A program made the translations under genes and the position numbers. Source: Acidobacteriota bacterium (GTDB taxonomy: Bacteria > Acidobacteriota > Blastocatellia > Chloracidobacteriales > Chloracidobacteriaceae). Taken from it: DNA of 64,000 nucleotides. Position 1 is the first letter of the stretch; every line of letters starts with the position of its first letter. A model generated the notes under the pieces. It did not search any database. It saw only the letters and a list, made by a program, of their open reading frames with translations, and was not told the origin of the DNA. Positions 9,254 to 56,596 of this stretch are shown piece after piece. The DNA is taken from the NCBI GenBank assembly GCA_016208495.1, contig JACQXX010000072.1, positions 1 to 64,000 on the forward strand. The letters run 5' to 3'.

Positions 9254-9259
9254 GTGTCT

Positions 9260-12828: not shown

Positions 12829-13104
12829 AATTTTGAGGGTTCAGGGTTCAGGGTTCAGGGTTCAGGGAAAATACAACTCTTTCAGCGAGTTCGCCTTTTT
12901 ACCACAGCGGCCATAGTGGTTCACAGCGGCAAATTGAGTTTCCATGGATGACTTTCACCATTTGGAGATTTCCCAGGTGACGCTTTTTCCTGAGCCGGAT
13001 GATTGATCAGGCTCAGGAAAAGCTGCCAGACAGGTTGGAGGTTGAATAGGGCTTGCCGAAAATTGACGTTTTGATCAAGATCTGAATTGGCAAACCTTTT
13101 AGAA

Positions 13105-17392: not shown

Positions 17393-17507
17393 AGAAGGCG
17401 GGCTTGGGGCTGAAGACTCGCAAGCTCGGGGCTGAAGAGGTTGGGTCAGTATTCAACCCGTTTTCTTCAGCCCCCAGCCCTGAGCCCGAAGTCTTCAGCC
17501 CTCATCC
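17393..17507. repeat. Inverted arrays of the GGCTGAAGA / TCTTCAGCC unit
   Basis: Direct reading. Confidence 0.85.
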
Positions 17508-18902
17508 TCAGCTTCCCGAATATCCGCCCCGTCCAAACGAGCCGGACCGGTTGGGTGAATAATATCCAGAGCGTCCAGCCCTGGTTCCAGCCAGTCCGCC
17601 TGATGGGTTGACGCGAACGGTGGTTCGTCCAAACCCGCTTGGTTTGGCTCTCCCAACCCCATAATTTGACCCAAGTCGTGAGCCGGCAAACATGGTGGGT
17701 CGCCGAACCGGCGCATATGTCGGCGGGGCGACCGGTGGGCGAAGGTTCGGTGTCGCTCGTGGCAACGTCCGGGCGTAGGCTGGCGTGGGTACATACAATG
17801 GATAGACCAGGAAAAAGAACCCGTGGCTGGTCGGCGCGCCGCCATAGTAATAATGCCGTTCTGCCACGGTTTGTTTTGACCCATCCGGCAGTTGTTTGAC
17901 CACCTGTTCGTCAAGCGGGGTGAAATCAGACAGCGGCAACATGGCGATGGTCAGTCCGTTGTCTTTGAAGTCCACAAACTCTTCGTTCAGGTCGTCAAGT
18001 TCCGTGGTTCGGGTTCGGTCCGGCGTGAGATAGACCAGCGATTTGATGCCGTTTTCCTTTAACTTCTGGGCTGACGGCACTTTGGCCAGATAGCGATTGT
18101 CAAACTGGGTGTCGGCGTCTTTGTAGGGGGCCAGCCGGTTGGAATCGAGCAAAAACACCACCGGAGCATCTGCCGGAAGTGCCGCCTGTTTGGTCTGGAT
18201 TTCCCTGGCGTAATAGAGCATCGCACCCAGAGTTTCGTGCGAAGGGGTGACTCCAAGTGGATGCGGAAAATTGTCAAACGTCGTCACCAGGCGGGCTTTG
18301 TCGGCCAGTCCGGCGCCAAATGCGACGGCATCCCGTCCCGGCAGGTCGGCAATCAGGGCCGTTTCATTTCGGTTTTGGGCGTTTTCCAGAAAATCCTTCC
18401 CGATGGTTTGACCGCGCTGGTAGCTTTCTTCCATGTCGGGAGTTGAAATCGGGTGCAACTGCCCCCGGAGCGTGTCAAATTTGAGCGACTGGATCAGCGT
18501 CGGCACAAAAAACGGCGCCCAGGCTGGCGACGCTGGTTGAAAAGCGCCCAGCATGGCATTGAAGTCAAGATAGTGCTTCCACTCCTCGGTTTTGAGTGAG
18601 TCCTGGAGCTGGATTCCCGTCAAGGTCAATGGTTTATCTTCCGAGCCAAGATTCCAGCCATGTTTTTGCTGCAATGCCAGCGAGTCATCATCAATTTCAC
18701 TGGTGTCATCACGAAGCAGCCAGTACGCTCCAACTCCCGTCAGCCCCAGTGCGGCAACGCTGCCACCAATGATGAATTTTCGACGTGAGGTGGACCACCA
18801 GCCTTGTGATTGACCGTCAGGAAGTTGCTGGCGGCGGCGAAAAACTCGACCAAAGGCTCCTGGTCCGGATGAAGATTGATTGTCGTCTGCCACGATTGAC
18901 AT
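17508..18902 (-). CDS. TAT-signal protein of unknown function with a Gly/Ser/Arg-rich C-terminal tail
   Basis: It has a twin-arginine motif SRRKFIIGGSVAALGLTGVGA. Its ATG overlaps the upstream gene's stop codon by 1 nt (TAATG). The C-terminal ~60 aa are low-complexity GRxGxS. Confidence 0.6.
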   Translation of the reverse strand: MSIVADDNQSSSGPGAFGRVFRRRQQLPDGQSQGWWSTSRRKFIIGGSVAALGLTGVGAYWLLRDDTSEIDDDSLALQQKHGWNLGSEDKPLTLTGIQLQDSLKTEEWKHYLDFNAMLGAFQPASPAWAPFFVPTLIQSLKFDTLRGQLHPISTPDMEESYQRGQTIGKDFLENAQNRNETALIADLPGRDAVAFGAGLADKARLVTTFDNFPHPLGVTPSHETLGAMLYYAREIQTKQAALPADAPVVFLLDSNRLAPYKDADTQFDNRYLAKVPSAQKLKENGIKSLVYLTPDRTRTTELDDLNEEFVDFKDNGLTIAMLPLSDFTPLDEQVVKQLPDGSKQTVAERHYYYGGAPTSHGFFFLVYPLYVPTPAYARTLPRATPNLRPPVAPPTYAPVRRPTMFAGSRLGSNYGVGRAKPSGFGRTTVRVNPSGGLAGTRAGRSGYYSPNRSGSFGRGGYSGS

Positions 18903-23084: not shown

Positions 23085-23200
23085 GAGTGGTATTACCATT
23101 GTGCAATGACGTGCTTGTATTAGAAAATAGTCAAGTGATTCAATCAAATGAACTGAGCGAACTACTGACTACTGACTGCTGACTACAAACTGGTATGATA
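23085..23200 (+). promoter_or_regulatory. Conserved gene-upstream element, copy B (ATTACCATTGTGCAATGACGTGCTTGTATTAGAAAATAGTCAAGTGATTCAA...[CTGACTA]3...CAAACTGGTATGAT)
   Basis: It aligns with copies A and C and has 3 heptamer copies, one of them CTGACTG. Confidence 0.5.
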
Positions 23201-25894: not shown

Positions 25895-26145
25895 ATCAGG
25901 TATTTGGATTGAGCATCCCGGAGGGCTGCAGTTCGGATAGCCGGTGGTTGCGAAGCTTTGTGAGCTACCACCGGGAACAGGTTCGTCCTCTCCAGTGCTC
26001 CCCCGCTTCGCCCGCGCCCCCGCAGGGGCGCGGGCGAAGCGGGGGAGCAACAAGGGGGGTAGCCTTTGGATCCGGTGGTAGGCCCAAAGCGGCCAACCGA
26101 CCGGCTATCCGAACTGCAACGCTTCGCGGTGCAAGACCAAAACCT
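25895..26145. repeat. GC-rich multi-hairpin palindromic element (MITE/REP-like)
   Basis: GCAGTTCGGATAGCCGGT (25931-) is the reverse complement of ACCGGCTATCCGAACTGC (26101-). The central hairpin CCCCGCTTCGCCCGCGCCCC-CGCA-GGGGCGCGGGCGAAGCGGGG is perfect over 20 bp. There are additional GGTAGCC...CCGGTGGTAGG stems. Confidence 0.7.
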
Positions 26146-27989: not shown

Positions 27990-28385
27990 GAAGCGAAGTA
28001 GCGAAAAAGAAGCGAGTGGTGAGTAGCGAGTAGCGAGTAGTCAACCGTTGGGTACTTCAAATGGTTTGTTGTTTTGGTGAGCAGGAAGACCCAAATTGAA
28101 TAATTCAGATTTTAGGGAGTCGGATGGAAATATCATACCACCAGGGTTCAGGGTTCAGGGTTCAGGGTTCAGGGTTCAGGGCCAGATACTCCACGTTGAG
28201 CGGTACCCGCCAGTTCCCCCGTCTTCATCTTGAGTGGGATCAGTCAACTCATCGCCGAAACCCTGAACCCTGACCCCTAACCCCGCTGAACCCTGAACCC
28301 TGAACCCGATTTCAGTGGGATTTTATTTTCTTCTGGGTCCCTTACTACTCGCTACTCACTACTCACTACTCACTAGCCTTATTTG
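27990..28385. repeat. Large nested inverted-repeat region built from tandem units: (AGTAGCGAGT)n ... (GGGTTCA)5 ... centre ... (GAACCCT)n ... (ACTACTCGCT/ACTCACTACT)n
   Basis: Direct reading. The outer decamer arrays (28008-28040 and 28340-28380) and the inner heptamer arrays (28143-28180 and 28261-28300) are mutually reverse-complementary. Confidence 0.85.
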
Positions 28386-32870: not shown

Positions 32871-32965
32871 AATGAAGAATGAAGAATGAAGAATGAAGAA
32901 AATAAGAAGTTGAATTTTTTTCTTCATTCTCAATTCTTCATTCTCAATTCTTCACTTTGAGTTCT
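32871..32965. repeat. Inverted tandem arrays (GAAGAATGAA)n ... (TTCATTCTCAATTCTTCA)n
   Basis: Direct reading. Confidence 0.85.
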
Positions 32966-32987
32966 TCATTCTTCATTCAAAAAAACT

Positions 32988-34804: not shown

Positions 34805-36922
34805 TTATTCGGGCCGTTTGGCGCCTTCAGGAACCACCGAAATAATAATTCGGCGATGGTTGCCAGCCGCATCTGGACGTGAATCGTCAAAGTTGCGGAC
34901 TTCAACCCGATTGGCATCAATGCCTTTGGAGGTCAGGTAGTCACGCGCTTTTTCGGCCCGAGCCTGAGCCGTGCCGGCTTTTTCACCAGCTTCAGAGTGC
35001 CCGTCAATCACACACACGGCGGTCGGGTCAGATTGCAGTGTACTGGCGACTTCATCAAGCACCGCTTTGCACTGGTTATCAATGCGAGAGATGTTCCTCT
35101 TAAACATCGTGGTGTCACAGGTGAAGGTCCGCACCGGTGGCGGCGGAGGCGGTGCGATGATTTCAACCGTGGTCGAGGCTGGTGCTGAATCACAGGTCTT
35201 ATCGTTGGCCACGACTGACACGGTAATCGTGCCGGCTGACACTCCCTGGGTATTAACCGTGATTTTTGATCCTCTGCCTTCGATGCCTCCGCGAGAAGCC
35301 GTCCATTTGTAGGTCAGTTTGTCATCGTCTTCATCCTTGCCAACTGCCGTGAAGGTAAACGGCTGGTCTGATCCTTCTTTAATTGAAGTTGGAGAAGCCG
35401 AGACGGTCACAGTTGGGCAATGATTGACTTTTTCGACGATGACCGAGACTTCTTTGTTGACCGAATGGCCGCACGAATCTGCGACGTTGACGGTAATCAA
35501 CACGTTTCCAGGCGCCGTAATGCCCGGCGTCCAGGTAACGGATGTGCCTTCGCCTTTTAAGTCGCCACTGGTGGCAAACCAGCGATAGGTCAGCGTGGAA
35601 TCCGCCGCATCCGGGTCGGTGGCGGTCACCGTGGCGGTCACAACGTCTTTGCTCTTTTCTTTGACGGCAAGTTTGTCAGCCGAGAGCGTAACTGTTGGGG
35701 CGACGTTGCCCAGACAAGGATCGGGTTTTTCGATCTTGCGATAGCCCAGGGTCACATGACCAACCATGCCGTGGAAATCACCACCATCTGCCCGGCGGTC
35801 ATTGGAATTGGTCAGCATATAGCGATACGCACCGCCAAAGCTGAAGAACGTTTTGTGCTTTTTGCCAAACGGCACAAACCGGGCGCCAACGGTCACATCC
35901 AGAGGATTGACTGGATTGAGGTTTGGCGTCCCGCTACCAAAGTAATTGGTTGAAACCAGTTCCGATACAAACTGCACCCGATCATTGAAGGGAATATCCA
36001 CCGCGACCGAGGCAATGGCTTTGTTCCGTCGGTCAACGTAGGTAAAGCGATCTTCCGGGTCACCCGTTTTGACCAGGCCAAAGTTCATGCTGACGGTGGC
36101 CAGTTTAAAGCGTGGCGTGACGGCCAGAATGCCGCCAAAATCAATGTCTCCGGCACCGCTTCCGCTGACGATTCCCCCACCTAACCCATCACGAAAAACC
36201 GATTCAGCGGTAAAGGACGGGATATCCACAAACCCAATCAAGGCAAAGCCGACCGGGGCATCCTGGCTGTTGAGCCGGTATTTCATCCCAACCGTGGTAT
36301 TGCCGACTTTGTGCTTGCTGCGTCCAAAGAATGGATAGTCATTGAGATAGCCGGGAACTGTCCCGAACGTGCCGGGCGCGCCGGGTAAAATTCCCCCGAC
36401 CGTGGCACCCGTTAACGGAATTTGCACTACATTCCCTTGCCGACCTGGCGTGAAAGTGACTGTACCAACAACAAGAGATGTAAACCCTGGATAAGAAATA
36501 AAAGGTACTCCATCAGGGTTGCCGCCAGCATAGGTGGGAGTCGCAAATCGCCCAGGATTGACAACATTGGGAAGATAAAACCCGCTAATTCCAGTGACTT
36601 CCGAGGTCGAAAGTTGTTGCCGAAAGATAGATGAGGCAAACAGTTCGATTCGATCCGTCAGCCCCACACCGACGTTGAGGATGTTCTGACTGATGTCCAC
36701 ATCGCCTGGGTCACGGTCGAAGTTGTTGTAAAAGTAGGAAACATTAAACTCACCGCGTTTCAACGTTGAGGCGTCATACACGGAAAATAGTCCCGTTCCA
36801 CCTGTCACGGTTGCCTGCGTGCTGCGGTTTTTTTCACGTTGCGTTTCCTGTGCTGTCACGCAGGTACAACAGACCAGGAAGCCTAAAACCAAAACGGCCA
36901 GTTTTTGTGCAAATCGTTTCAT
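34805..36922 (-). CDS. Outer-membrane protein: N-terminal beta-barrel-like region, tandem Ig-like (PKD/BIG-type) domains and a C-terminal OmpA-like peptidoglycan-binding domain
   Basis: It has the signal peptide MKRFAQKLAVLVLGFLVCCTCVTAQE. The C-terminus (NQCKAVLDEVAS...CVIDGHSEAGEKAGT...RVEVRNFDD) is OmpA_C-like. There are repeated TYKWTAS/TYRWFAT Ig-like modules. AAGAGGAAA lies upstream of the ATG. Confidence 0.7.
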   Translation of the reverse strand: MKRFAQKLAVLVLGFLVCCTCVTAQETQREKNRSTQATVTGGTGLFSVYDASTLKRGEFNVSYFYNNFDRDPGDVDISQNILNVGVGLTDRIELFASSIFRQQLSTSEVTGISGFYLPNVVNPGRFATPTYAGGNPDGVPFISYPGFTSLVVGTVTFTPGRQGNVVQIPLTGATVGGILPGAPGTFGTVPGYLNDYPFFGRSKHKVGNTTVGMKYRLNSQDAPVGFALIGFVDIPSFTAESVFRDGLGGGIVSGSGAGDIDFGGILAVTPRFKLATVSMNFGLVKTGDPEDRFTYVDRRNKAIASVAVDIPFNDRVQFVSELVSTNYFGSGTPNLNPVNPLDVTVGARFVPFGKKHKTFFSFGGAYRYMLTNSNDRRADGGDFHGMVGHVTLGYRKIEKPDPCLGNVAPTVTLSADKLAVKEKSKDVVTATVTATDPDAADSTLTYRWFATSGDLKGEGTSVTWTPGITAPGNVLITVNVADSCGHSVNKEVSVIVEKVNHCPTVTVSASPTSIKEGSDQPFTFTAVGKDEDDDKLTYKWTASRGGIEGRGSKITVNTQGVSAGTITVSVVANDKTCDSAPASTTVEIIAPPPPPPVRTFTCDTTMFKRNISRIDNQCKAVLDEVASTLQSDPTAVCVIDGHSEAGEKAGTAQARAEKARDYLTSKGIDANRVEVRNFDDSRPDAAGNHRRIIISVVPEGAKRPE

Positions 36923-36944: not shown

Positions 36945-37075
36945 AAAAAATAGGGCTGAAAAAACCAGGGCTGAAGAAGTTGGACTGAAGACATTGGGCC
37001 AGGGGGCTGAGGGCTGAAGATAAGGGCTGAAGACGTCAGGCTGAAGAAAACGGGTGAAATCAATCCTAACACTAC
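36945..37075. repeat. Tandem GGCTGAAGA-type nonamer array (inverted partner copies at 37318-37360)
   Basis: Direct reading. The arrays flank the multi-hairpin element at 37090-37315. Confidence 0.85.
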
Positions 37076-37089
37076 AACGAGGTTTTAAT

Positions 37090-37315
37090 AAAAAACCGGG
37101 TCTTAAGCCCAGGAACTGGGTGGCAGGCATGTAGCCCAGAGTGCAACCCTGGGACCAACGGCCTGCTCTCCCTCCCCGCCGGCAACCGCCTACGGCGGTT
37201 GCCGGCGGGGAGGGAGAAATTGGGGATGACCGTCAACCCAGGGTTTCGAAGACTCCACCCTGGGCTACATGCCATCACCCGCTTCGCAGGTTAAAACCGA
37301 AACCTCGTTGTAGTA
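37090..37315. repeat. Palindromic multi-hairpin element (MITE-like). Outer arms GGCATGTAGCCCAG...CCCTGGG / CCCAGGG...CTGGGCTACATGCC, with a 23-bp perfect central hairpin CTCCCTCCCCGCCGGCAACCGCC-TAC-GGCGGTTGCCGGCGGGGAGGGAG
   Basis: Direct reading. It is related to the elements at 47040-47250 and 8941-8957 (shared CGCCCAGTTCCTGGGCT and CCCAGGGTT..CCCTGGGCTAC.TGCC blocks). Confidence 0.7.
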
Positions 37316-37374
37316 CTAAGCCCGATGTCTTCAGTCCCAAGCCCTGAGCCCTGGTTTTTTCAGCCCGTTAGTCT

Positions 37375-38655
37375 TTAGGCGTAAATTCCACGCATCTTGG
37401 TTTCATAGGCTACACGGTCAATGGCGAGCATGTAGGCTGCGATGCGCATGTTGACGTTGCGTTCTTCAGAGAAGCGCACAACTTCGTGGAACGAATCCAC
37501 CATCGTGTCACGGAGTCGTTCGTTGACGACGTCTTCTTTCCAGAAGAAACCCATCCGGTTTTGCACCCATTCAAAGTAGGAAACCGTTACACCACCAGCG
37601 TTGGCCAGAATATCCGGAATCACAAACACACCATTGCTTTGCAGAATGTCATCAGCGGCAGCGGTCGTCGGACCGTTGGCGCCTTCGGCCATAATGCGGC
37701 ATTTGATGCGGTTGGCATTTTTGGAGGTAATCTGATTTTCAGTCGCAGCGGGCATCAACACGTCGCATTCGAGTTCGAGCAGGTCGCTATTTGACACAAT
37801 CTCGCCACCGCCAAACCCTTCAAACGTCCGGTGCTGTTTCAGATAGTCAAGCGCCGCATTGACATCCAACCCGTTCGGGTTATAGATGCCGCCTTTGATT
37901 TCAGACAGTGCTGTGACCTTAAAGCCTTTTTCCTGAAGCAATTGGGCACCGATTCCGCCGACGTTTCCAGACCCTTGAACCACCACTCGAGTGTCTTCGG
38001 GTTTGAGCTTGAACTTTTTGCAGGCTTCTTCGATCACAAAGAGCAACCCACGGCCAGTCGCTTCGCGGCGACCTTTGGACCCACCCAGTTCGATTGGTTT
38101 TCCAGTGACCACGGCATTGACGGTGTGGCGGGCGTGCATGGAGTAGGTATCCATCAACCAGGCCATGACCTGTTCGTTGGTATTCATATCCGGTGCCGGA
38201 ACATCACGTTCCGGACCAATGATATCAATGAGTTCCGACGTGAACCGGCGGGTCATCCGTTCGAGTTCGGTCAGTGACATTTTGGATGGATCACAAATCA
38301 CGCCGCCTTTCCCACCACCAAACGGGACGTTGACCACGGCGCATTTCCAGGTCATCCACGCTGCCAGTGCGCGAACTTCGTCCAGCGAGACATCGGGGGC
38401 AAAGCGGATACCGCCTTTGGCTGGTCCACGGGCAAAATTGTGCTGAACGCGATAGCCGACGAAAACTTCATAATGGCCATCATCCATCATTGTTGGAATA
38501 TAGACCGTCATTTCGCGGTTCGGGCACCGCAAGATGCGATAGATATTCGGATCCAGATCGAGCAGTTTGGCCGCAACGTCAAACCGTGACATCATCGATT
38601 CAAACGGATTGGCTTCCTTTATATTTTTTGCGTCGTCTACAAAAGGACTGGGCAT
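37375..38655 (-). CDS. gdhA: NAD(P)-specific glutamate dehydrogenase
   Basis: It has the Glu/Leu/Phe/Val dehydrogenase signature (K)GGxRFxP...VPFGGGKGG and the C-terminal Rossmann domain GSGNVG. The start is at MPSPF, with AAGGAGG 7 nt upstream. Confidence 0.9.
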
Positions 38656-38833
38656 GGGGTTCCTCCTTGGGTTCAAAACCAAGAAATCAGAATGAATAAA
38701 ATGGTGAAAAGAGCGTGCTGTCTCGGCAGACAACAGGTGAGCAAAAACAAAGAGCAGCGTGAGGTGTGAATGATGAAAAACCCTGGACCAATTGAGGGTT
38801 CCTCATCATCCAGGGTGATTTTGAGATCGTTCA

Positions 38834-43438: not shown

Positions 43439-43510
43439 AGTCAGGGTTCAGGGTTCAGGGTTCAGGGTTCAGGGTTCAGTGAACAGGCAATTTGACAAGG
43501 TTTCTGATTC
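43439..43510. repeat. (GGGTTCA)x5 array in the 72-nt spacer between the E2-like and JAB genes
   Basis: Direct reading. Confidence 0.9.
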
Positions 43511-44485: not shown

Positions 44486-45289
44486 ATGCCTCACTCATCC
44501 GAATCAACCAATAAAGCCGCAAACCCGCTCGAAGCCGAAGGACAACAGCGAGCCAGACGTGTCCAGCAGATGTTTTCCGAAATCGCACCCCGCTATGACC
44601 TGCTCAACCATCTGCTTTCAATGAATATTGATAAGCGCTGGCGACGCTTTACCGTGCGCAAACTGCAGGATGTCCTTGATCAGCCTGGAGCGACCGCGCT
44701 TGATATTTGTTGTGGGACCGGCGATTTGTCGCTCGAACTTGGTCAGAAAGTGCCCACCATCGGCGTTGATTTTTGCCATCCGATGCTGGTGATTGGGCTT
44801 GAAAAAGTGCGCAAGACCGGGTTGCCGGTTCGCTTATGTGCCGGTGATGCTTTGAACCTGCCGTTTCAGGATGCCCGGTTCGATGCCGTCACCAATGCGT
44901 TCGGCCTTCGAAACGTGACCGATGTCGAACGTGGACTGGCCGAAGTATACCGCGTCCTCAAACCTGGAGGCCGGGCCGCCATTCTGGAGTTTTCTCGTCC
45001 AATTCTCCCAGGGTTTCGTGAAGCCTTTCAATGGTACTTTAACCACGTTTTGCCCCGCATTGGCGGTATGATTTCGGGCTCCAGTATGGCGTATACCTAC
45101 CTGCCGACTTCGGTGAAAAGCTTCCCTGATCAAAAACAACTGGCTGACCTGATGCGCAAAGTCGGGTTTACCGACGTCAAATATCATAACCTTTCAGGCG
45201 GTATTGCTGCCCTGCATTTGGGAAACAAGCCGAAGAATGAAGAATTGAGAATGAAGAATGAAGAATTGAGAATGAAGAATGAAGAATGA
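44486..45289 (+). CDS. ubiE: Demethylmenaquinone/ubiquinone C-methyltransferase UbiE/MenG
   Basis: It has the class I SAM-MTase motif LDICCGTGDLS and UbiE-specific N-terminal and C-terminal blocks (FSEIAPRYDLLN, RVLKPGGR). The last ~17 codons (KNEELRMKNEELRMKNEE) are encoded by the GAAGAATGAA tandem array, so the true stop is uncertain. Confidence 0.85.
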   Translation: MPHSSESTNKAANPLEAEGQQRARRVQQMFSEIAPRYDLLNHLLSMNIDKRWRRFTVRKLQDVLDQPGATALDICCGTGDLSLELGQKVPTIGVDFCHPMLVIGLEKVRKTGLPVRLCAGDALNLPFQDARFDAVTNAFGLRNVTDVERGLAEVYRVLKPGGRAAILEFSRPILPGFREAFQWYFNHVLPRIGGMISGSSMAYTYLPTSVKSFPDQKQLADLMRKVGFTDVKYHNLSGGIAALHLGNKPKNEELRMKNEELRMKNEE

Positions 45290-45470
45290 AGAAATAAACT
45301 GGTGCTTGGTTCTTAGTGCCTGGTTTCGAAAACCCGGAACCCGGAACCCGGAACCCGGAACCCGGAACCCGGAACCCGGAACCCGGAACCCGGAACCCGG
45401 AACCCGGAACCCGGAACCCGGAACCCGGAACCCGGTGTATTCTTCATTCTTCATTCCCACACCGTCCGTT
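45226..45470. repeat. Nested inverted repeat: (GAAGAATGAA/GAATTGAGAAT)n ... (GGAACCCG)x14 ... TTCATTCTTCATTC
   Basis: Direct reading. The octamer array spans 45322-45435. Confidence 0.9.
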
Positions 45471-45723
45471 TCCGTACACTCCCGTACATTTGCGTACGCC
45501 TTCGGCCTGTCAAATGTCGGTTATCCTGCCTGAAATCAATCGTTGAAGTTCGGAAATAATCTTATTTAAGGTCAGTACTCTGATTATTTCAATAGAGTAA
45601 ACTATTGGAAAAATTGGGTTTCCCTGAACCCTGAGCCCTAAGCCCCAGCCCAAAATGTGTTGATGTCCAGTTGTGGTCTCTCGCTTGCACTCAGTCAGGT
45701 GCGAAAGTGAGGAGACCACATCA

Positions 45724-46968
45724 ATGGACCGTCAAATCAGTCAATCAACCAAAATCAAAAGAACGCTCTGGCGGAGTTTTTCGGTAATTCTCGTCCTTGG
45801 AGCGGCAATGGCGGCTCTGGCATACGGGCCACGGCTGCTCAAGCCCACGATTAGACGGGCCGATTTTCGCACCGCACGCGTCGAAGCCGGTCCGATTGAA
45901 GCGACGATCAATTCCACCGGGGTGGTGGTGCCCGATTTTGAACAGGTCATTTCCAGCCCGGTGAATGGTCGGATTTTGCGGGTGTTAAAACGCCCAGGTG
46001 ATCCGGTCCGGCGGGGTGATGCCATTCTGGAACTGGATGTCAGCGAGGCCACGCTGGCGCTTGAAAAACTCAAACAGCAAATTGACCTCAAACAGAATCA
46101 GCAAGCCAAAGCCAGACTGGACCTGCAGAACACCCTCAACACGCTCCGCAGCCAGTGGGAAATCAAAAATCTTGATTATGAAGCCGCAAAAGCTTCGACG
46201 GGACGCAACCGGAAGTTGAAGGAACTGGGGTTGCTCTCTGCCGAACAGCTTCACGAAGCAGAAATTCGGGAAGAAAAAATCGCCTTCGAACTCAAACAAC
46301 TCTCCGCCGCCCAGCAAAACGCTGAAGCCTCAACCACGACCCAGCTTGAAGGGCTGGACCTGGAAATGAAGTCGCTCCTCAACGAGCAGGCTGATATGGA
46401 ACGCCAGCTTGAACTGGCGACGACCAAGGCTGACCGGGATGGCGTGCTGACCTGGGTGATTACCGAGACAGGGACTTCGGTATTGAAAGGTGCGTTACTC
46501 GCTCGAATTGCCGATCTGAGTTCGTTTCGGGTGGATGCCACCGTGTCAGATATCCATTCCCGCCGACTTTCCACTGGTTTGCCCGTGACGATCAAAATCA
46601 ATGACGAATTGCTTTCTGGAACCGTGTCAGTGATTAACCCAACGATCAAAGATGGAGTGATGACGGTTGGAATCGCGCTGGTTGAAAAATCGAGCCCGCT
46701 GCTGAAATCAAATTTGCGCGTGGATGTGCTCATCGTGACTGACCGCAAAAGTCAGTCTTTAAAAATAAGAAAAGGGGTCTTTGCCGCGACAGATGGCATT
46801 GATCACGTTTTTGTCGTTCGCGGAGACCGACTGGTGAAACATCAGGTCAAGTTCGGAATCTCGGGCTTTGACACCCTCGAAGTGCTGTCCGGCCTGGTCG
46901 AGGGCGATGAAGTCGTGATTTCCGATATGAAGGAGTACCAGCACATGCGTGACATCCAGATTCGGTAG
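45724..46968 (+). CDS. HlyD-family periplasmic adaptor (membrane fusion protein) of a MacAB-type ABC efflux system
   Basis: It has an N-terminal TM anchor, a biotinyl/lipoyl-like hairpin (GDPVRRGDAILELD), a long coiled-coil and a C-terminal beta-barrel. The start is at MDRQISQ. Confidence 0.8.
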   Translation: MDRQISQSTKIKRTLWRSFSVILVLGAAMAALAYGPRLLKPTIRRADFRTARVEAGPIEATINSTGVVVPDFEQVISSPVNGRILRVLKRPGDPVRRGDAILELDVSEATLALEKLKQQIDLKQNQQAKARLDLQNTLNTLRSQWEIKNLDYEAAKASTGRNRKLKELGLLSAEQLHEAEIREEKIAFELKQLSAAQQNAEASTTTQLEGLDLEMKSLLNEQADMERQLELATTKADRDGVLTWVITETGTSVLKGALLARIADLSSFRVDATVSDIHSRRLSTGLPVTIKINDELLSGTVSVINPTIKDGVMTVGIALVEKSSPLLKSNLRVDVLIVTDRKSQSLKIRKGVFAATDGIDHVFVVRGDRLVKHQVKFGISGFDTLEVLSGLVEGDEVVISDMKEYQHMRDIQIR

Positions 46969-46989
46969 CCGCCACTGGTATCTCATAGT

Positions 46990-47300
46990 CAGTAGTCAGT
47001 AGTCAGTAATGCCCGTTAAGAGTTGAAGTGGTTTTTAGTTCTCATCCCGCAGGGATGGAGCAAAGTTAGCCGGTGGTCAGCGTCGCTTTGGACGCGCCAC
47101 CACCGGATGCGAGTCAGTTCCAGATTTTCCCCACCCGGCCAGCCGCCGCCGTAGGCGGCGGCTAGCCGGGTGGGGGTGAGAAGGCAATCTTTCCCAGGGT
47201 TAAAACCCTGGGCTACCTGCCTTCCGCCCAGTTCCTGGGCTCAAATCCGCTCTTTTTTCAACTCTTAATTCAGATTACTGACTACTGCCTACAAATTGGC
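46990..47300. repeat. Multi-hairpin element (at least 5 consecutive stem-loops) ending in a partial copy of the CTGACTA upstream element
   Basis: The hairpins are CTCATCCC-GCAG-GGATGGAG; CCGGTGGT...ACCACCGG; CCACCCGGCCAGCCGCCGCCGTAGGCGGCGGCTAGCCGGGTGGG; CCCAGGGTTAAAACCCTGGG; GCCCAGTTCCTGGGC. It is followed by ATTACTGACTACTGCCTACAAATTGGCATGAA. Confidence 0.7.
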
Positions 47301-47343
47301 ATGAATTTGGCACAACAAGACATTGAAAGAACGGGAGTTAAAT

Positions 47344-48009
47344 ATGATCCAGCTTGAAAATATTGAAAAAATCTATCGAACGGAAACGGTTGAAACCATG
47401 GCCCTGGCCAATATCAACCTGAATATCAACCAGGGGGAGTTCATCTCGATTATGGGGCCCTCCGGCTCGGGGAAAAGTACCTTGCTCAATGTGATGGGGC
47501 TTCTGGATGCCCCCTCGGGTGGGAAAGTAACGCTCAATGGGCGGTTTATTACGTCATATCGTGACCGCGATCTGGCATCAATGCGAAACGAGGAGATCGG
47601 CTTTATTTTCCAAACCTTCCATCTGATCAACGATTTAAGCGTGGTGGACAATGTCGAGTTGCCGCTGATTTACCGCAAAATGTCTGGGACCGAGCGCCGC
47701 CGGCAGGCCCTGGCTGCACTTGACCGGGTTGGATTGTCGGCGCGCACACATCATTTCCCTTCGCAGCTTTCTGGCGGTCAACAACAGCGCGTCGCCATTG
47801 CCCGCGCCATTGTCGGCAACCCAAAAATTCTGCTCGCCGATGAACCCACCGGAAACCTCGACAGCCAGATGGGTGATGAAGTGATGTCCATCCTCAAGCA
47901 ACTCAATAGTTTGGAAAAAACCACCGTCGTGATGGTCACTCACGATCAGCGACAGGCTGAAAAAACACAGCGCATCGTGCGTCTGTTTGATGGCCGTCAG
48001 GTATTTTAG
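47344..48009 (+). CDS. ABC transporter ATP-binding protein (MacB/LolD-type)
   Basis: It has Walker A GPSGSGKST, the signature LSGGQQQRVAIARA, Walker B LLADEPTGNLD and the H-loop. Confidence 0.9.
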   Translation: MIQLENIEKIYRTETVETMALANINLNINQGEFISIMGPSGSGKSTLLNVMGLLDAPSGGKVTLNGRFITSYRDRDLASMRNEEIGFIFQTFHLINDLSVVDNVELPLIYRKMSGTERRRQALAALDRVGLSARTHHFPSQLSGGQQQRVAIARAIVGNPKILLADEPTGNLDSQMGDEVMSILKQLNSLEKTTVVMVTHDQRQAEKTQRIVRLFDGRQVF

Positions 48010-48104
48010 GAATAGGGTTCAGGGTTCAGGGTTCAGGGGGCAAAAAGGTTCATTGTACTTCTGTCGGTCTTTTTGCCCCTTTTGTCTTTTAGAGGAAAAT
48101 CATC

Positions 48105-49343
48105 ATGCTCAAAAATTATATAAAAACCGCATTGAAAGTGCTGCTTCGGCGCAAGTTCTTTACTTTCATCAGCTTATTTGGAATTAGCTTTACGTTGATT
48201 GTACTGATGGTCATTACCGCAATGGTGGATTATCTGGTGGCGCCAATGGCGCCTGACACCAAAGCTGATCGAATACTGGGAATTTACTTTTCTCAGATGA
48301 CGGGCCCCGAAGCTCAATCCACCAGCCCTGCCGGGTACAAGCTCCTGGATAAGTATGCCCGGAATTTGCCGCACGTCGAATCCTTCTCGATTTGCACCAT
48401 GATGCAACAGGTCAATGGGTTTCCCAATGGCGATAAGGTTCAGGCGTTTCTCAAACGGACGGATGGGAACTACTGGCGAATTTTTGATTTTCAGTTTCTC
48501 GAAGGCGGACCGTTTCTCGACGAAGACAACCAGAACGCGAATTTTGTGGCCGTGATCAATGAGGCGACGCGGCAAAAGTTTTTTGGTAATACCACAGCGG
48601 TTGGGAAGACGATGGAACTCGACGGTCAGCGGTTTCGCGTGGTTGGGGTGGTCACCAATGTCCCAATTACCCGACTCATTCCTTTTTCTGATGTCTGGGT
48701 ACCGCTCACGACCGCCAAATCTGATAGTTATCGAAATGAACTGATGGGTGGTCACACCGGGGTGATTCTGGCTGAAAATGCCGCTGCCATTCCATTGATT
48801 AAAGCTGAATTTGATACCCGGATTCAGGCGGTTGAAATCCCAAACCCAAAACAATACACCGAATTTCTCAGCCGGGCGGAAACACTCTGGGAATTTGTTG
48901 CCCGAACCCTGACGGGGGACTATTCCTCCCGCGCCACCATGAAACTCCTGATGGCTGCCATGAGCTTTATGTTTCTGTTTATGTTGTTGCCGGCGATTAA
49001 CTTAATCAACATCACCGTCAGTCGCATATTAGAACGCTCAAGCGAGATTGGCGTTCGCAAAGCATTTGGTGCTTCGTCTATGACGCTCATTGGCCAGTTT
49101 GTGGTGGAAAACGTGATCCTGACCCTGGTGGGCGGAATGCTGGGGTTGGTTGGATCGTGGCTGGTATTGCGTGGTATTTCGGAAAGTGGGCTGATTCCCT
49201 ATGCCCAGTATCAAATCAACTGGCGGATTTTTCTGTATGGACTTGGGCTAGCGCTGGTCTTCGGCGTGGTTTCCGGGGTGTATCCAGCCTGGAAAATGTC
49301 ACGCCTGCATCCGGTTGAAGCGCTCAAGGGAGGTGTCCGATGA
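48105..49343 (+). CDS. ABC transporter permease, FtsX/MacB-type (with periplasmic MacB_PCD-like domain)
   Basis: It has an N-terminal TM, a ~220-aa periplasmic domain and a C-terminal 3-TM FtsX module with RKAFGAS. Confidence 0.85.
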   Translation: MLKNYIKTALKVLLRRKFFTFISLFGISFTLIVLMVITAMVDYLVAPMAPDTKADRILGIYFSQMTGPEAQSTSPAGYKLLDKYARNLPHVESFSICTMMQQVNGFPNGDKVQAFLKRTDGNYWRIFDFQFLEGGPFLDEDNQNANFVAVINEATRQKFFGNTTAVGKTMELDGQRFRVVGVVTNVPITRLIPFSDVWVPLTTAKSDSYRNELMGGHTGVILAENAAAIPLIKAEFDTRIQAVEIPNPKQYTEFLSRAETLWEFVARTLTGDYSSRATMKLLMAAMSFMFLFMLLPAINLINITVSRILERSSEIGVRKAFGASSMTLIGQFVVENVILTLVGGMLGLVGSWLVLRGISESGLIPYAQYQINWRIFLYGLGLALVFGVVSGVYPAWKMSRLHPVEALKGGVR

Positions 49344-50536
49344 TCAAACAACTTATGAAACTCACCTGGAACCGGAAACGGGCCAATCTGTTGATTTCAA
49401 TTGAGATATTCATTTCATTTTTGGTGTTGTTCGCTGTGGTGCTGATGGCTGGCGTGTATCTTTACAATTACCTGCAACCACTGGGGTTTGAATATGACAA
49501 CGTGTTATGTGTTTCGGTTTCCACCAAAAACCGTTCCCATGATGCGAAAAGTGATGCCGCCGAGCGAGAACTCTTTCATCAACTTCAGCTATCCGCCCAG
49601 TCACTTGGTGAAGTCGAAAGCGTGGCGCTCTCCAATGTTGATCCGTTTGGCAATAGCCAGAATGTCTCGGGTTTTGAACGCAACGGACGGGAAATTCAGT
49701 ACAGTTTGAGCCGGGTCACTGATGGGTACAAGGACGTGATGCGGCTGCAACTCATTGCCGGACGATGGTTTAACCGCGAAGACGATGGGTCGAAATTTCA
49801 GCCGGTCGTCATCAGCCAGCGTCTGGCGCGTGACGGATTTGGCACTGAAAATCCAATTGGGAAAGCGATTGAAAAACACAAAGACGGCACTGAATTGCGA
49901 GTGATTGGGATTTTCTCGGATTTTCGTCAGGACGGAGAGTTGTCTCCGCTGGAAAACTATGCTTTTTTCCGACAAGATGAAGCTAAAGAAGATGGCTTTC
50001 CGCTGACGATTTTTCTGATTCGCGTCCGGCCTGGAACTCCAAGGGCATTTGAAGAAAAACTCATCACTCAATTTCAATCGGTAGCCAAAGAATGGTCATT
50101 TGAGGCCCAATTTCTCGCCGATATGCGAGAGACAAAAATGAAAGTGTACCTTATCCCGCTGGCGGCAGCCGGCTCAATCGTGACGTTTTTAATGCTGATG
50201 GTGGCATTAGGGCTGATTGGCGTGTTATGGCAGAGCGTGACCCGGCGAACCCGCGAAATCGGGGTGCGCCGCGCCTTTGGTGCCACGGCTGGAAACGTCT
50301 ATCTGCAGATTTTGGGCGAACTCCTTGCTGTAACCACGGTTTCACTGGTGGCTGGAGTAGCGGTGGTTGGGCAATTGCCGCTGATTGACATTTTTGGGTT
50401 TATCCAAGGTAAAGTGTTTATTTACAGCTTGTTAGCATCAATTGTGATAATGTATGTTCTGACACTGATGTGCGGTCTGTATCCAAGCTGGATTGCCACG
50501 CGGGTCCATCCGTCACAGGCACTGCACTACGATTAA
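49340..50536 (+). CDS. Second FtsX/MacB-type ABC permease
   Basis: It has the same architecture, with the FtsX box RRAFGAT. Its ATG overlaps the upstream stop (ATGA). Confidence 0.85.
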   Translation: MIKQLMKLTWNRKRANLLISIEIFISFLVLFAVVLMAGVYLYNYLQPLGFEYDNVLCVSVSTKNRSHDAKSDAAERELFHQLQLSAQSLGEVESVALSNVDPFGNSQNVSGFERNGREIQYSLSRVTDGYKDVMRLQLIAGRWFNREDDGSKFQPVVISQRLARDGFGTENPIGKAIEKHKDGTELRVIGIFSDFRQDGELSPLENYAFFRQDEAKEDGFPLTIFLIRVRPGTPRAFEEKLITQFQSVAKEWSFEAQFLADMRETKMKVYLIPLAAAGSIVTFLMLMVALGLIGVLWQSVTRRTREIGVRRAFGATAGNVYLQILGELLAVTTVSLVAGVAVVGQLPLIDIFGFIQGKVFIYSLLASIVIMYVLTLMCGLYPSWIATRVHPSQALHYD

Positions 50537-50537
50537 A

Positions 50538-50609
50538 GTCAGTACCACCTGCGTAAGTGGGTGGGATTGTGTCTAAACGGACCCACCCGCTTACGCAGGT
50601 GGTACTGAC
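50538..50609. other. Near-perfect 28-bp inverted repeat (GTCAGTACCACCTGCGTAAGTGGGTGGG / CCCACCCGCTTACGCAGGTGGTACTGAC) with a ~16-nt loop
   Basis: Direct reading. There is one G/A difference (a G-U wobble if RNA). It lies 2 nt after the permease stop, with no T-tract after it. Confidence 0.8.
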
Positions 50610-50640
50610 TGTCCAAGCCCTCAGCCCTCAGCCCTAAAAT

Positions 50641-52011
50641 ATGATTCTCATTGTTGACGACGACCGTTCCATCACGACTTCGCTTGGGCTGTTGCTCAAA
50701 CAGGCCGGGTATCCCGCGCAAAGTGCGGCTTCACCGGCGGAGGCACTGGAACGTCTGGCACAACAGGAATATCAGCTTGTGATTCAGGATATGAACTTTT
50801 CCCGAAAAACAACCGGGGAAGAAGGGCTGGCGTTGCTGCGTGAAATCAAAAGCCGTCGTCCGGGGTTGCCGGTCATCTTGATCACTGCCTGGGGGTCAAT
50901 TCAGCTTGCGGTGGAAGGAATGCGCGCTGGCGCTGCCGATTTTTTAACCAAACCCTGGACCCATCAGCAGGTACTCCAGGCGGTAAAAACGGCACTTGGG
51001 TTGGCGGCGGTTTCGGTGCGAACTCTCGAACGGGTTCCAACCCGCGACGAGCTGGATGCCCAGTATGATTTTCACGACTTGATCGGACAGGATGCGAAAT
51101 TACTGCGCATTCTGGATCTGGTCGGACGGGTCAGTGCCACTGATGCTTCAGCCTTGATTACCGGCGAAAGCGGCACCGGCAAAGAACTGATTGCCGAAGC
51201 AATCCACCGCAACAGTCGGCGCCAAAATGCCGCCTTTGTGAAAGTCAATTTGGGTGGTATTGCCGCCAGTTTGTTTGAAAGCGAGATGTTTGGGCACGTT
51301 CGTGGGGCTTTTACCGATGCGCGAACTGATCGGAAAGGCCGCTTTGAAATGGCCAATGGCGGAACGATATTCCTTGATGAGATTGGAGATCTGGATCCAA
51401 ATTCGCAGGTGAAAATGCTGCGGGTGTTACAGGATCGAACCTATGAAGTGCTGGGTTCGAGCGTGACCCGCACGGTTGACGTGCGGGTCATTTCAGCCAC
51501 CAATCGAAACCTGCCGGAACTGGTCGAGACCGGGATTTTTCGGGAAGACTTGCTCTATCGGCTCAATTTGATTGCGATTCATTTGCCCTCATTACGCGAA
51601 CGACCTTCAGATATTCCGCTGCTGGCCCAGCATTTTGTCCAAAGTATGGCCCGTGTGTATCGTCGGAGTGAGCTTTCAATCAGTGATGCGGCCTTAAACT
51701 GGCTTCAAACTTTGAACTGGCCAGGAAATATCCGCCAGCTCAAGCAAGTGCTGGAGCGAACCATTTTGATTACCTCGAAAGACACGCTCGACGTCGAAGA
51801 TTTTGCCGTTCCGGTTCAAATGGAATCCAAAGAGAAGGGAAAAACCACGTTGCCCGAAGTCGGGTCAATGACGCTCGACGACATCGAAAAAGCCATGATT
51901 GTAAAGACCATCAAGCACCACGGCGGCAACCTGACCAAAGTCGCTGAGGCGCTTGGGTTAAGTCGTCCGGCGCTGTATCGAAGGCTTGAAAAGTTTGGGA
52001 TCCAGGTTTGA
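50641..52011 (+). CDS. Sigma-54-dependent response regulator (NtrC family: REC + AAA+ sigma-54 activator + HTH)
   Basis: It has the REC domain (DDD...K), GESGTGKELIAEAIH, the GAFTDA motif region and a C-terminal Fis-type HTH. Confidence 0.9.
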   Translation: MILIVDDDRSITTSLGLLLKQAGYPAQSAASPAEALERLAQQEYQLVIQDMNFSRKTTGEEGLALLREIKSRRPGLPVILITAWGSIQLAVEGMRAGAADFLTKPWTHQQVLQAVKTALGLAAVSVRTLERVPTRDELDAQYDFHDLIGQDAKLLRILDLVGRVSATDASALITGESGTGKELIAEAIHRNSRRQNAAFVKVNLGGIAASLFESEMFGHVRGAFTDARTDRKGRFEMANGGTIFLDEIGDLDPNSQVKMLRVLQDRTYEVLGSSVTRTVDVRVISATNRNLPELVETGIFREDLLYRLNLIAIHLPSLRERPSDIPLLAQHFVQSMARVYRRSELSISDAALNWLQTLNWPGNIRQLKQVLERTILITSKDTLDVEDFAVPVQMESKEKGKTTLPEVGSMTLDDIEKAMIVKTIKHHGGNLTKVAEALGLSRPALYRRLEKFGIQV

Positions 52012-52017
52012 AAAAAC

Positions 52018-52245
52018 AAGGGTTTCGGGTTTCGGGTTTCGGGTTTTCGAAGAGGGCGCGGTTCAAAGCAACAGCGCCCTTACTTTTTGTCACCTTGTCA
52101 CCTTGTCATTCTGTCACCTTGTCATATTCATATCCTTCAAAGAAATTGGACAGCGACAGATGATTTTCCTCTGTCGCTTTTTTGTCGTCAGGGTACACAA
52201 TGAACCCTGAACCCTGAACCCTGAACCCCGAACCCTAACTGCTTT
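52018..52245. repeat. Arrays (GGGTTTC)x4 ... (GTCACCTT)x4 ... unique ... (GAACCCT)x5
   Basis: Direct reading. Confidence 0.85.
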
Positions 52246-52246
52246 T

Positions 52247-53566
52247 ATGTCCCTTAGATTCAAATTTCTCCTCTATCTCATCATTGCGCATATGTTGTTT
52301 GCGGTGATTGGTGCGCGAGTTTTTTCAAAATATGGGTTATGGGTTTTTGCCGTGGAAGGGGTGTTTGTGATTTCCCTGGTGATTGGGCTGCGGCTGGTGG
52401 GAGAGTTATTCAACACCCTGAATTTGATTAGATCGGGTGCGCAATTCATTAAAGAACGAGACTTTACGACCAAAATTCGGGAGGTTGGACAGCCTGAACT
52501 CGATCAACTGGTGGCGGTCTATAACCGGATGATTGACTCGCTCAGGGAAGAGCGATTGCGGCTTCAGGAAAATAACTACTTTTTGGAAAAGGTGTTGTCG
52601 GCATCGCCTTCCGGGATTTTGACCCTCGACTTTGACAACCGGATCTCAATGGTCAATCCCGCCGCCGAGCGATTGTTGCAAGCCGAGAAATCAACCCTGG
52701 TTGGGCTGTCTCTGGAGGCAGTTGATTCGAGTTTTGCCAGAGAGCTTGGGGAATTGAAACCCGGAGAGGCACGTGTCATCCCCTATCTTGGCCGCCGAAA
52801 AGTGAAATGTCACAAGTCAGAGTTTATTGATCGAGGATTCCCGCGCCATTTCATTCTCATGGAGGAACTGACCGAAGAACTTCGTCAGACGGAAAAAGCC
52901 GCCTACGAAAAACTGATTCGGTTAATGAGCCATGAAGTCAATAACACGATTGGCGCGGCAAATTCGCTCCTCCATTCCTGTTTGAACTATCAAGATCAGC
53001 TCCGACCCGATGACCAGAAAGATTATGGAATGGCGCTCCAGGTGGTCATTGACCGAACCGATCAACTCAATGCTTTTATGCGGAGTTTTGCCGATGTGGT
53101 GCGGCTCTCACCACCAAAACGTGAATTGTGCGAAGTAAAAGTATTGTTGGAAACTGTCGCCCGGCTTCTCAAAGCCGAGTGCGACAGGCGCGGAATCGTG
53201 GTGAAATGTGAAATCGAAGATCAACCGGATCGGGTCAGCCTGGATCGTGGGCAAATCGAACAGGTACTGGTCAACCTGATGAAAAATGCAGTTGAGGCAA
53301 TAGGGGAAACCGGTCAGATTACGATTCGAACAGGCTACAACCTGGGTCGTCCGTTTGTGACGATTGAAGATACCGGCGCCGGATTTCCTCCCGAAGTGAA
53401 AGCCAATTTGTTTTCACCGTTTTTCAGCACGAAAGAGCATGGGCAGGGAATTGGACTCACGCTGGTTCAGGAAATTCTCGACAACCACGGGTTTGATTTT
53501 GCATTGGAAAGTGAACCGGGCAGTCCAACCCGATTCACTATTTTTCTGAGCCCGAAAGCACTTTAG
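52247..53566 (+). CDS. Sensor histidine kinase (2 TM + PAS-like + HisKA + HATPase_c), cognate to the upstream NtrC-like regulator
   Basis: It has the H-box MSHEVNNTIG, and N (NLMKNAVEA), G1 (DTGAGF) and G2 (GQGIGL) boxes. Confidence 0.85.
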   Translation: MSLRFKFLLYLIIAHMLFAVIGARVFSKYGLWVFAVEGVFVISLVIGLRLVGELFNTLNLIRSGAQFIKERDFTTKIREVGQPELDQLVAVYNRMIDSLREERLRLQENNYFLEKVLSASPSGILTLDFDNRISMVNPAAERLLQAEKSTLVGLSLEAVDSSFARELGELKPGEARVIPYLGRRKVKCHKSEFIDRGFPRHFILMEELTEELRQTEKAAYEKLIRLMSHEVNNTIGAANSLLHSCLNYQDQLRPDDQKDYGMALQVVIDRTDQLNAFMRSFADVVRLSPPKRELCEVKVLLETVARLLKAECDRRGIVVKCEIEDQPDRVSLDRGQIEQVLVNLMKNAVEAIGETGQITIRTGYNLGRPFVTIEDTGAGFPPEVKANLFSPFFSTKEHGQGIGLTLVQEILDNHGFDFALESEPGSPTRFTIFLSPKAL

Positions 53567-53690
53567 GGTTTGGGGTTCAGGGTTCAGGGTTCAGGGTTCA
53601 GGGTTTTCGAAAAATCACCTTGTCACCTTGTCACCTTGTCACTTTGTCACTTTGTCACTTTGTCACTTTGTCACCTGAAACCAGACTCCG
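53567..53690. repeat. (GGGTTCA)x5 followed by (CACCTTGT/CACTTTGT)x8
   Basis: Direct reading. Confidence 0.9.
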
Positions 53691-53917
53691 CTTGCCAAAG
53701 GGCGGCGAAATGCGTTAAACCTAAGTCTCGCTTTTTCTACACGCAAAAACCCTTTCAATTATCCTGTTCCCTGGCTGTTTTCAACTTTGTCGGTCTGACA
53801 GTAAACCCCAGCCCTGGTGTTTTTCTGGCGGATATGCACGCATCGAAGCGGTCAGGAAGTTCACCCCGACGTCTCAAACAAGCAGCATTTGACCTTTGAA
53901 TCTGGAGGACACCTCAC

Positions 53918-56416: not shown

Positions 56417-56439
56417 ATTGAGGCCCGGGGACCGAAGAA

Positions 56440-56560
56440 AGCGGTCATATTAGAAAATAGTCAAGTTATTGAACCCAGTGAAGGTAGTGAACCATTGACC
56501 ACTGACCACTGACCACTGACTACTGACTACTGACTACTGACTACAAGCTGGCATAACAGA
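56440..56560 (+). promoter_or_regulatory. Conserved gene-upstream element, copy C (AAAGCGGTCATATTAGAAAATAGTCAAGTTATTGAA...(CTGACCA)x3(CTGACTA)x4 CAAGCTGGCATAAC)
   Basis: It aligns with copies A and B. The heptamer array here is 7 units, including CTGACCA variants. Confidence 0.5.
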
Positions 56561-56596
56561 TTTCCACCCAAAGCCTGATACCAAACGAGGAAACCC

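Follow-up and report, generated by a model that had tools for sequence, protein, structure and literature searches.

The locus analysed here raises the question of what the GC-rich palindromes between its genes are: mobile repeats, structured RNAs or regulatory devices of the host. The analysed stretch of 64,000 nucleotides (the window; ~51% GC) originates from a Blastocatellia acidobacterium, and named homologues of its HlyD-type protein were found in Blastocatellia and other Acidobacteriota. Identical copies of proteins encoded in the window were returned only from a 3.4-kb Logan contig, whose sequence equals that of the window. In the first-pass annotation a family of multi-hairpin, MITE- or REP-like elements had been noted at 37090-37315, 46990-47300 and 8941-8957, and the sequences at all three sites are present as described. 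A fourth element, missed earlier, could be identified at 25915-26133 by a scan with the independent covariance model R1 (see below). Altogether the window holds four composite elements, A (37106-37292), B (46972-47314), C (~8899-8984) and D (25915-26133), with three significant units, three units of a second subtype and one decayed unit in 64 kb. Elements A, B and D are probably REP elements that are arranged as REPIN/BIME-like inverted pairs.

Architecture of the elements

All four elements are intergenic and lie in a housekeeping region without mobile-element genes. About 40 ORFs of the window were compared with Pfam and proved to be housekeeping, transport or regulatory; transposase, integrase or reverse transcriptase domains were found in none of them, and no tblastn match to a Y1 transposase was obtained within the 64 kb. 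The neighbours of element A are two minus-strand genes, one of the OmpA family (34805-36877) and one for glutamate dehydrogenase (37375-38733). Element B is situated in a string of transporter genes (adaptor, ATPase and permease), where the HlyD-type adaptor gene (45673-46968) precedes it and the ABC ATPase gene (47344-48009) follows, and element C is found downstream of a phosphoglucomutase gene.

The repeat unit consists of two hairpins, in the order HP1 (8 bp), GCTAC(N)TGCC, 3-5 nt and HP2 (5-8 bp). Its reverse complement, HP2-GGCA(N)GTAG-HP1 (with the linker HP2-GGCANGTAG-HP1), is a palindrome tagged with GTAG, the feature by which REPs are recognised. REPs have a short GC-rich hairpin whose 5' foot is an unpaired GT[AG]G, and this structure could be located in both A and B, with GTAG directly before HP1 at 37131-37134 and CTAC directly after HP1 at 37265-37268 and 47213-47216. 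HP1 is common to A and B (CCCAGGG-loop-C(C/T)CTGGG), as is HP2 (GCCCAG-TTC-CTGGGC). Two HP1 subtypes occur in the window, CCCAGGG..CCCTGGG and CCGGTGGT..ACCACCGG (HP1'), and the HP1' of the left unit of B carries a GTTAG foot. A, B and D each contain two units in opposite orientation, and between these lies a long hairpin, rich in GC and of 22-25 bp, that is perfect or nearly so. The parts of the elements are as follows; bits and E values refer to R1.

36953-37366: larger palindrome around A, an inverted repeat; fold -250 kcal/mol, z -15.3
36953-36999 and 37320-37366: outer arms of A, 47 nt, 85% complementary, GGGCTGAAGA-like repeats
37071-37087 and 37301-37315: inner arms of A
37106-37154, minus strand: left unit of A; HP2 at 37107-37121 (GCCCAGGAACTGGGT), GTAG at 37131-37134, HP1 at 37135-37153; 21.4 bits, E 7e-4
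37127-37153: left arm of A, GGCATGTAGCCCAG..CCCTGGG
37167-37217: central perfect hairpin of A, 24 bp, loop TAC, 79% GC; from the exhaustive hairpin scan and the folds
37236-37292, plus strand: right unit of A; HP1 at 37237-37264, CTAC at 37265-37268, TGCC at 37270-37273; 29 bits, E 9e-6
37237-37273: right arm of A, inverted partner of the left arm, CCCAGGG..CCCTGGGCTACATGCC
~37278-37290, plus strand: HP2 of the right unit of A, weak
46972-47314: whole of element B, 343 nt between the adaptor and ATPase genes; from BLASTN collinearity with the relative L002 and the alignment of alleles
46986-47008 and 47275-47287: complementary 7-nt arrays further out around B
47016-47027 (TTAAGAGTTGAA) and 47257-47268 (TTCAACTCTTAA): outer arms of B
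47041-47060, 47070-47106, 47129-47175, 47193-47212 and 47226-47240: five stem-loops of B
47041-47106, minus strand: left unit of B, second subtype; HP2' at 47041-47060, GTTAG at 47065-47069, HP1' (CCGGTGGT..ACCACCGG) at 47070-47106; layout as in D
47129-47175: central hairpin of B, 22 bp with one C/A mismatch, loop GTA; the perfect stem is 10 bp
47192-47241, plus strand: right unit of B; HP1 at 47193-47212, CTAC at 47213-47216, TGCC at 47218-47221, HP2 at 47226-47240; 42.7 bits, E 3e-9
8899-8984, plus strand: element C, one decayed unit; remains of HP1 together with GCTAC (8910-8914), HP2 block still intact (8940-8956), TTCAACTCTTAA as tail (8973-8984); from alignment with the right unit of B and a metagenome copy (L122)
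25915-25975, minus strand: left unit of D, second subtype; HP2 at ~25915-25929, GATAG at 25936-25940, HP1' at 25941-25974; 7.7 bits, weak
25996-26049: central perfect hairpin of D, 25 bp, loop CGCA; from the hairpin scan, fold z -13.2
26072-26133, plus strand: right unit of D, second subtype; HP1' at 26072-26104, CTATCC at 26105-26110, HP2 at 26117-26133; from the sequence and the whole-element fold

The palindromic arrangement of the arms of A around a perfect hairpin, as proposed in the first-pass annotation, could be confirmed, except that the stem is 24 bp long and not 23, and the five consecutive stem-loops claimed for B were all recovered, from 47041 to 47240. The site at 8941 had been counted among the multi-hairpin palindromes, which is wrong: C is a single decayed unit with a decayed HP1, its overall fold is not significant (z = -1.3) and R1 gives only 5.9 bits. 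Element A has the layout of REPINs and BIMEs, which B and D share, and the folds of the whole elements reach z values of -10.6 to -13.2. Compared with shuffled sequence the folds lie 10-15 standard deviations lower (A with flanks, z -15.3; B, -11.5; D, -13.2), and an exhaustive scan of the window found hairpins with at least 20 perfect pairs only at the centres of A and D. Both A and B are nested in larger palindromes with short tandem arrays.

When reverse-complemented, A can be aligned with B over ~150 nt, with a shared order of long GC-rich hairpin (GTA loop), HP1, GCTAC(N)TGCC, 3-5 nt and HP2. The central hairpins of both are aligned, and the changes between A and B fall on both arms of the long hairpin and of a short outer stem around HP1. 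Two blocks had been described as shared by A and B, the second also occurring at 8941, and this holds: CCCTGGGCTACMTGCC was found at 37126-37141 (minus strand), 37258-37273 (plus) and 47206-47221 (plus), and the 17-nt CGCCCAGTTCCTGGGCT at 8940-8956, 37106-37122 (minus) and 47225-47241. For CGCCCAGTTCCTGGGCT four matches were counted in comparison with 0.17 expected, a number that was reached in 0 of 100 shuffles, and the pattern CCGGTGG..CCACCGGCTA occurs twice in the window with 0 expected.

Other repeats are abundant between the genes. Nearly every intergenic region contains tandem arrays of 7- or 8-nt units (~45 arrays in 64 kb according to TRF), with CTGACTA, AACCCTG/AACCCGG, AGGGTTC, TGACAGGG, AATGAAG and others as units and with 15 perfect copies of AACCCGG at 45331-45435. 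Examples are located at 1-82, 6867-7064, 12836-12867, 28142-28181, 32871-32978, 43441-43479, 45232-45435, 52020-52236, 53565-53676 and 56496-56544. These arrays resemble the heptamer repeats of cyanobacteria and Beggiatoaceae (PMC4679880), and a literature search returned no report of heptamer-type arrays in Acidobacteria. At 17378-17508, between the convergent genes 16106-17392 (plus strand) and 17508-18902 (minus strand), GGGCTGAAGA-like repeats are directly followed by their complement TCTTCAGCCC; the outer arms around A are built of this repeat type as well. A ~102-nt repeat (GTATTAGAAAATAGTCAAGT..ATTCAAT..) occurs at 9132-9245, 23090-23196 and 56420-56554 and partially at 47264-47302, where the right edge of B contains its last part. 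It ends in (ACTACTG)n-ACTACAAAYTGGYAT, is found just upstream of the start codons at 9254 and 56597, and could represent a common 5' leader or promoter module. Two pairs of dispersed intergenic inverted repeats are unrelated to the REP units, namely 8580-8674/60262-60356 (95 nt, 78% complementary) and 28111-28153/60504-60546 (43 nt, 91% complementary).

Inside B, 32 nt upstream of the ATPase start, TGGCATGAATTTGGCA at 47297-47312 looks like a sigma-54 promoter, with correctly spaced GG and GC elements; further downstream, 50641-52011 encodes a sigma-54-dependent response regulator. As such matches are not above chance in the window (10 in comparison with 12.9 expected), this candidate was rejected. 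Downstream of two-component genes, 53918-56416 encodes an 832-aa protein that consists almost entirely of pentapeptide repeats (Pfam PF00805, 367 bits, 15 stretches).

Relatives of the unit and Y1 transposase genes

To find relatives, the pattern CCCAGGG-N(3-18)-CTGGGCTACNTGCC was scanned against one genome per species, which resulted in 109 stretches. Matches in Pseudomonas, Luteimonas and similar genomes were discarded as coincidences in coding sequence. Multicopy non-coding units were obtained from a Thermoanaerobaculia MAG, four Chlamydiota MAGs and two Planctomycetota MAGs, and non-coding units also from a Blastocatellia MAG (three tandem copies) and a Chloracidobacterium MAG. In these non-coding relatives the second hairpin is always present at the same distance, although it was absent from the search pattern; across lineages its sequence varies and its pairing is kept. 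The Chlamydiota pairs are near-perfect palindromes of ~300 nt. In the Blastocatellia MAG (CAVTUR010000008.1; L003, 5327-5872) the two-hairpin unit forms three direct tandem modules of ~97 nt with one inverted copy 240 nt upstream, an organisation unlike the inverted pairs of the window.

For the construction of R1, 13 units of equal length were taken from other genomes, and no window sequence was included; the restriction to equal length was made because HP1 had been misplaced by MAFFT when units with long and short loops were aligned together. When applied to the window, R1 recovered the right unit of B (47192-47241, E 3e-9), the right unit of A (37236-37292, E 9e-6) and the left unit of A (37106-37154, E 7e-4), and otherwise reached E < 0.5 only for the same HP1 hairpins on the opposite strand. 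Elsewhere 117 units in 62 sources were matched, including partner units with other stem sequences, and inverted pairs predominate. In an alignment that is itself fitted to the model, 97.4% of the cells are paired and 10 of 13 pairs have changed in both partners; neither any of 500 shuffles nor any slid register comes close to this level of pairing and covariation. A window-specific metagenome scan for linker plus HP2 returned 15 stretches, 14 of which were rejected as chance matches in coding sequence; the remaining one (L122) is a true copy and the only further close one. The second subtype is absent from the 131 fetched loci, and no units were found in fragments of 11.5 and 16 kb from two relatives.

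At five of five loci examined (L028, L096, L112, L132 and L133), a Y1 transposase gene lies between a unit on the minus strand and a unit on the plus strand, which is the unit order of element A. The earlier statement that no transposase is associated with the elements therefore holds for the window, by tblastn and Pfam, and fails elsewhere. In two Chlamydiota loci the inverted units are ~600 nt apart, compared with the usual ~190, and enclose an ORF of 150-154 aa that matches Pfam Y1_Tnp (PF01797) with 93-98 bits. The other three loci are an Acidobacteria MAG (L112) and two metagenome contigs (L132 and L133), and here the flanking units score 24-53 bits with R1. A Y1 HUH gene flanked by inverted copies of the same REP is the arrangement of a REPtron, which is thus found in other genomes, and the unit-gene-unit layout with inverted REPs corresponds to that described for RAYT genes (PMC3733652, PMC6006769, PMC3116915). 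The 150-154-aa ORFs reach 81-83 bits with the NCBIfam IS200 model NF033573 (cut-off 55). With NF047646, the model for REP-associated tyrosine transposases, one of the two reaches 36.4 bits, below the cut-off of 80, so that the linked transposases are not placed in the RAYT clade by this model. They are IS200-like by sequence and RAYT-like by arrangement.

REPs elsewhere flank a small tyrosine transposase that is thought to move them (PMC3733652, PMC3116915, PMC3479197). By analogy with TnpA-REP of E. coli and the REPINs of Pseudomonas (PMC3479197, PMC8266576, PMC3116915), Y1-mediated spread is the most likely origin of the units in the source genome. In this model the hairpin, folded from single-stranded DNA, and its GTAG foot would be recognised by a RAYT-like tyrosine transposase (Y1, HUH) whose gene would lie in another part of the genome. 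The enzyme would cut near the foot and rejoin the ends, by which unit pairs would spread. An element that has inserted between genes could secondarily affect the transcript, and we infer that the elements may influence expression in this manner.

Alternative explanations and the occurrence of element B among strains

According to one alternative, the unit is a structured RNA, either a trans-acting sRNA or a cis-regulatory element of the transcripts that carry it. An Rfam scan of the whole window at gathering threshold yielded tRNA-Pro only, and sub-threshold matches to miRNA and snoRNA models were dismissed as just long hairpins. One family deserves attention, Acido-Lenti-1 (RF01687), which Rfam types as 'Gene; sRNA' of unknown function and which was judged a likely non-coding RNA without known role by Weinberg et al. 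(2010; PMC2864571). Its published seed contains many clustered copies from Lentisphaera araneosa and also members from Koribacter versatilis and Rhodopirellula baltica. Two Planctomycetota loci that were found with the motif of the window (L017 and L037) score 38.8-54.6 bits with RF01687, above its 37-bit threshold, and the strong covariation in both helices would also fit an RNA, as would the sense-orientation unit just upstream of the next gene in both A and B. A sense copy is, however, guaranteed in either reading direction because the units form inverted pairs on both strands, and single-stranded DNA hairpins predict equal covariation. In addition, the units are multicopy, clustered and flank transposase genes, the passing units of L017 and L037 are themselves inverted pairs, the best window copy (47193-47241) stays below the threshold with 23.1 bits and falls outside the family, and no promoter-like site was found. 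An RNA function is therefore considered improbable.

In the MAG L002 the adaptor gene is 93% identical at the nucleotide level and the locus is collinear with 45382-57266 of the window, but 28 unrelated nt replace positions 46972-47314. Because of this replacement, the ATPase gene of L002 starts 59 nt after the adaptor gene. The same empty allele of B is present in a second strain (L130), and a third (L131) has the filled allele, although its contig ends within the element. When the filled and empty alleles were aligned, neither a target-site duplication nor a clean junction could be observed at B. The adaptor genes of the window and L131 differ at 74 of 1245 sites, 55 of them third codon positions, which corresponds to a divergence of 5.9% overall and 13% at third positions. 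In the first (left) 112 nt of B only 1 site differs (P 0.008 and 2e-6 compared with the gene). Selection, recent recombination, conversion from other copies or a chimeric metagenome contig are all possible reasons for this conservation. For element A, the available relatives of the OmpA-type gene were a 92%-identical contig that ends 153 nt upstream, inside short repeats, and a 60%-identical MAG locus in which synteny is lost.

According to a second alternative, the elements are mainly host devices (terminators, attenuators or mRNA-stabilising hairpins), and their repetition is a by-product of function. The very stable folds, the position of B within a transporter gene string and the single change in its left 112 nt, against 5.9% in the adjacent gene, are consistent with such a role, and in E. 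coli an influence of REPs on mRNA stability and on termination has been reported (PMC3733652). However, two close strains lack B and have a 59-nt spacer instead, and the conservation could also reflect recent recombination, conversion or a chimeric contig. Neither terminator-like nor promoter-like sites were detected in B by a consensus scan, and as an intrinsic terminator A offers one weak 5-bp site on the minus strand, which is at or below the level of shuffled sequence. As the unit moreover flanks transposases in other phyla, a primary host function has little chance of being the explanation.

That the elements are MITEs or PATE-like deletion derivatives of ordinary insertion sequences (DDE type or true IS200/IS605) is highly improbable: they are small, palindromic, non-coding and variably present, and the linked transposases score as IS200 in NCBIfam, but no target-site duplication was found at B, and the transposases are flanked by inverted copies of one unit, unlike the two different hairpins on the same strand at IS200/IS605 ends (PMC6006769). 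Moreover, in each of two Chlamydiota MAGs the fetched loci contain one transposase only and far more pairs that enclose no gene. Group II intron domains, integron attC sites and CRISPR repeats were dropped on sequence alone, as none of their motifs is present. Of the two labels given in the first-pass annotation, 'MITE' in its strict sense is not supported: neither IS-type terminal inverted repeats of a parent IS nor a recognisable target-site duplication was found, the window yielded no parent IS, and the enzymes linked to the unit are of the Y1 HUH class. 'REP-like' is the appropriate one in view of the GTAG-tagged hairpin, the inverted pairs, the extragenic location and the presence or absence of B among close strains.

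Comparison with known systems

GTAG-tagged REPs, their dimers (REPINs and BIMEs) and REPtrons are well established (PMC3733652, PMC3116915, PMC3479197, PMC8266576), as is the mobilisation of GTAG REPs by RAYT/TnpA-REP (Bertels and Rainey, 2011, PMC3116915; Di Nocera, 2013, PMC3733652; Messing, 2012, PMC3479197). Published catalogues of GTAG REPs cover Proteobacteria, Cyanobacteria, Chloroflexi and the PVC group, whereas for Acidobacteria only tyrosine transposases flanked by 'TIRs' are listed (PMC3733652). The elements of the window agree with this class in the GTAG foot beside an 8-bp GC-rich hairpin, the extragenic location, the pairs that fold into one long hairpin, the several subtypes per genome and the variability among strains, and the unit family shares with it the inverted copies on both sides of a Y1 gene, as seen in other genomes. 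The mobilisation of GTAG-tagged REPs by RAYT was reportedly already put forward by Nunvar in 2010. The unit of the window differs from known GTAG REPs in having two hairpins, the second at a fixed 12-13 nt beyond the tag, and in the conserved GGCA(N) before GTAG. Its linked transposases differ from RAYT of the E. coli type in being nearer to IS200 by NCBIfam score. The pairs differ from REPINs in that they enclose a perfect or nearly perfect hairpin of 22-25 bp, and to our knowledge such central perfect hairpins are not a described feature of REPINs.

Acido-Lenti-1 resembles the unit in layout, with an 8-bp hairpin (4-nt loop), GCUA, a linker of ~12 nt, a 5-bp hairpin (3-nt loop) and U, and it is likewise found in Acidobacteria. 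It differs in being typed as sRNA, whereas the units described here behave as transposase-tied DNA repeats, and the best window copy remains below its threshold. In the limited literature that could be searched, no paper was found that ties Acido-Lenti-1 to REPs or Y1 transposases. Acido-Lenti-1 and the elements of the window may form one cross-phylum class of two-hairpin REPs, which may co-evolve with an IS200-like Y1 clade, and not with classical RAYT, in Acidobacteriota, Planctomycetota, Chlamydiota and Lentisphaerota. In the present lineage the pairs may have gained a self-complementary central hairpin and may be conserved above the neutral rate, which would suggest a role at the level of the host, for instance that of a module for RNA processing or insulation within the transporter operon. 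Taken jointly, a cross-phylum class that includes Acido-Lenti-1 and a host-level role of the pairs are regarded as rather doubtful, with a modest chance of both being right. The REP reading as such would place a REP/REPIN-type system in Blastocatellia, in a phylum missing from published surveys of GTAG REPs. It would also give RF01687, without function since 2010, a testable identity as recognition element of a Y1 transposase instead of a small RNA. As the adaptor/ATPase spacer occurs both filled and empty, it offers a natural experiment on the effect of the element on the operon.

Similar systems described for these phyla are the TIRtrons with their TIRYT transposases (Di Nocera, 2013) and class 3 TnpA-Y1 (Quentin, 2018, PMC6006769). 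Here, too, inverted structured repeats flank Y1 genes, the hosts are Acidobacteria and Planctomycetes, some of the repeats form families and, for class 3, 'atypical secondary structures' are mentioned. Class 3 is described with a CnGA foot and another Y motif, compared with GTAG/ATAG in the units described here. Combining these comparisons, it is concluded that the elements belong to the REP/REPIN family, which they represent in a little-studied phylum, and do not constitute a kind of their own. Departures within this known kind are the two-hairpin unit, the IS200-like enzymes and the perfect central hairpins, and the remaining biology is as expected for REPs.
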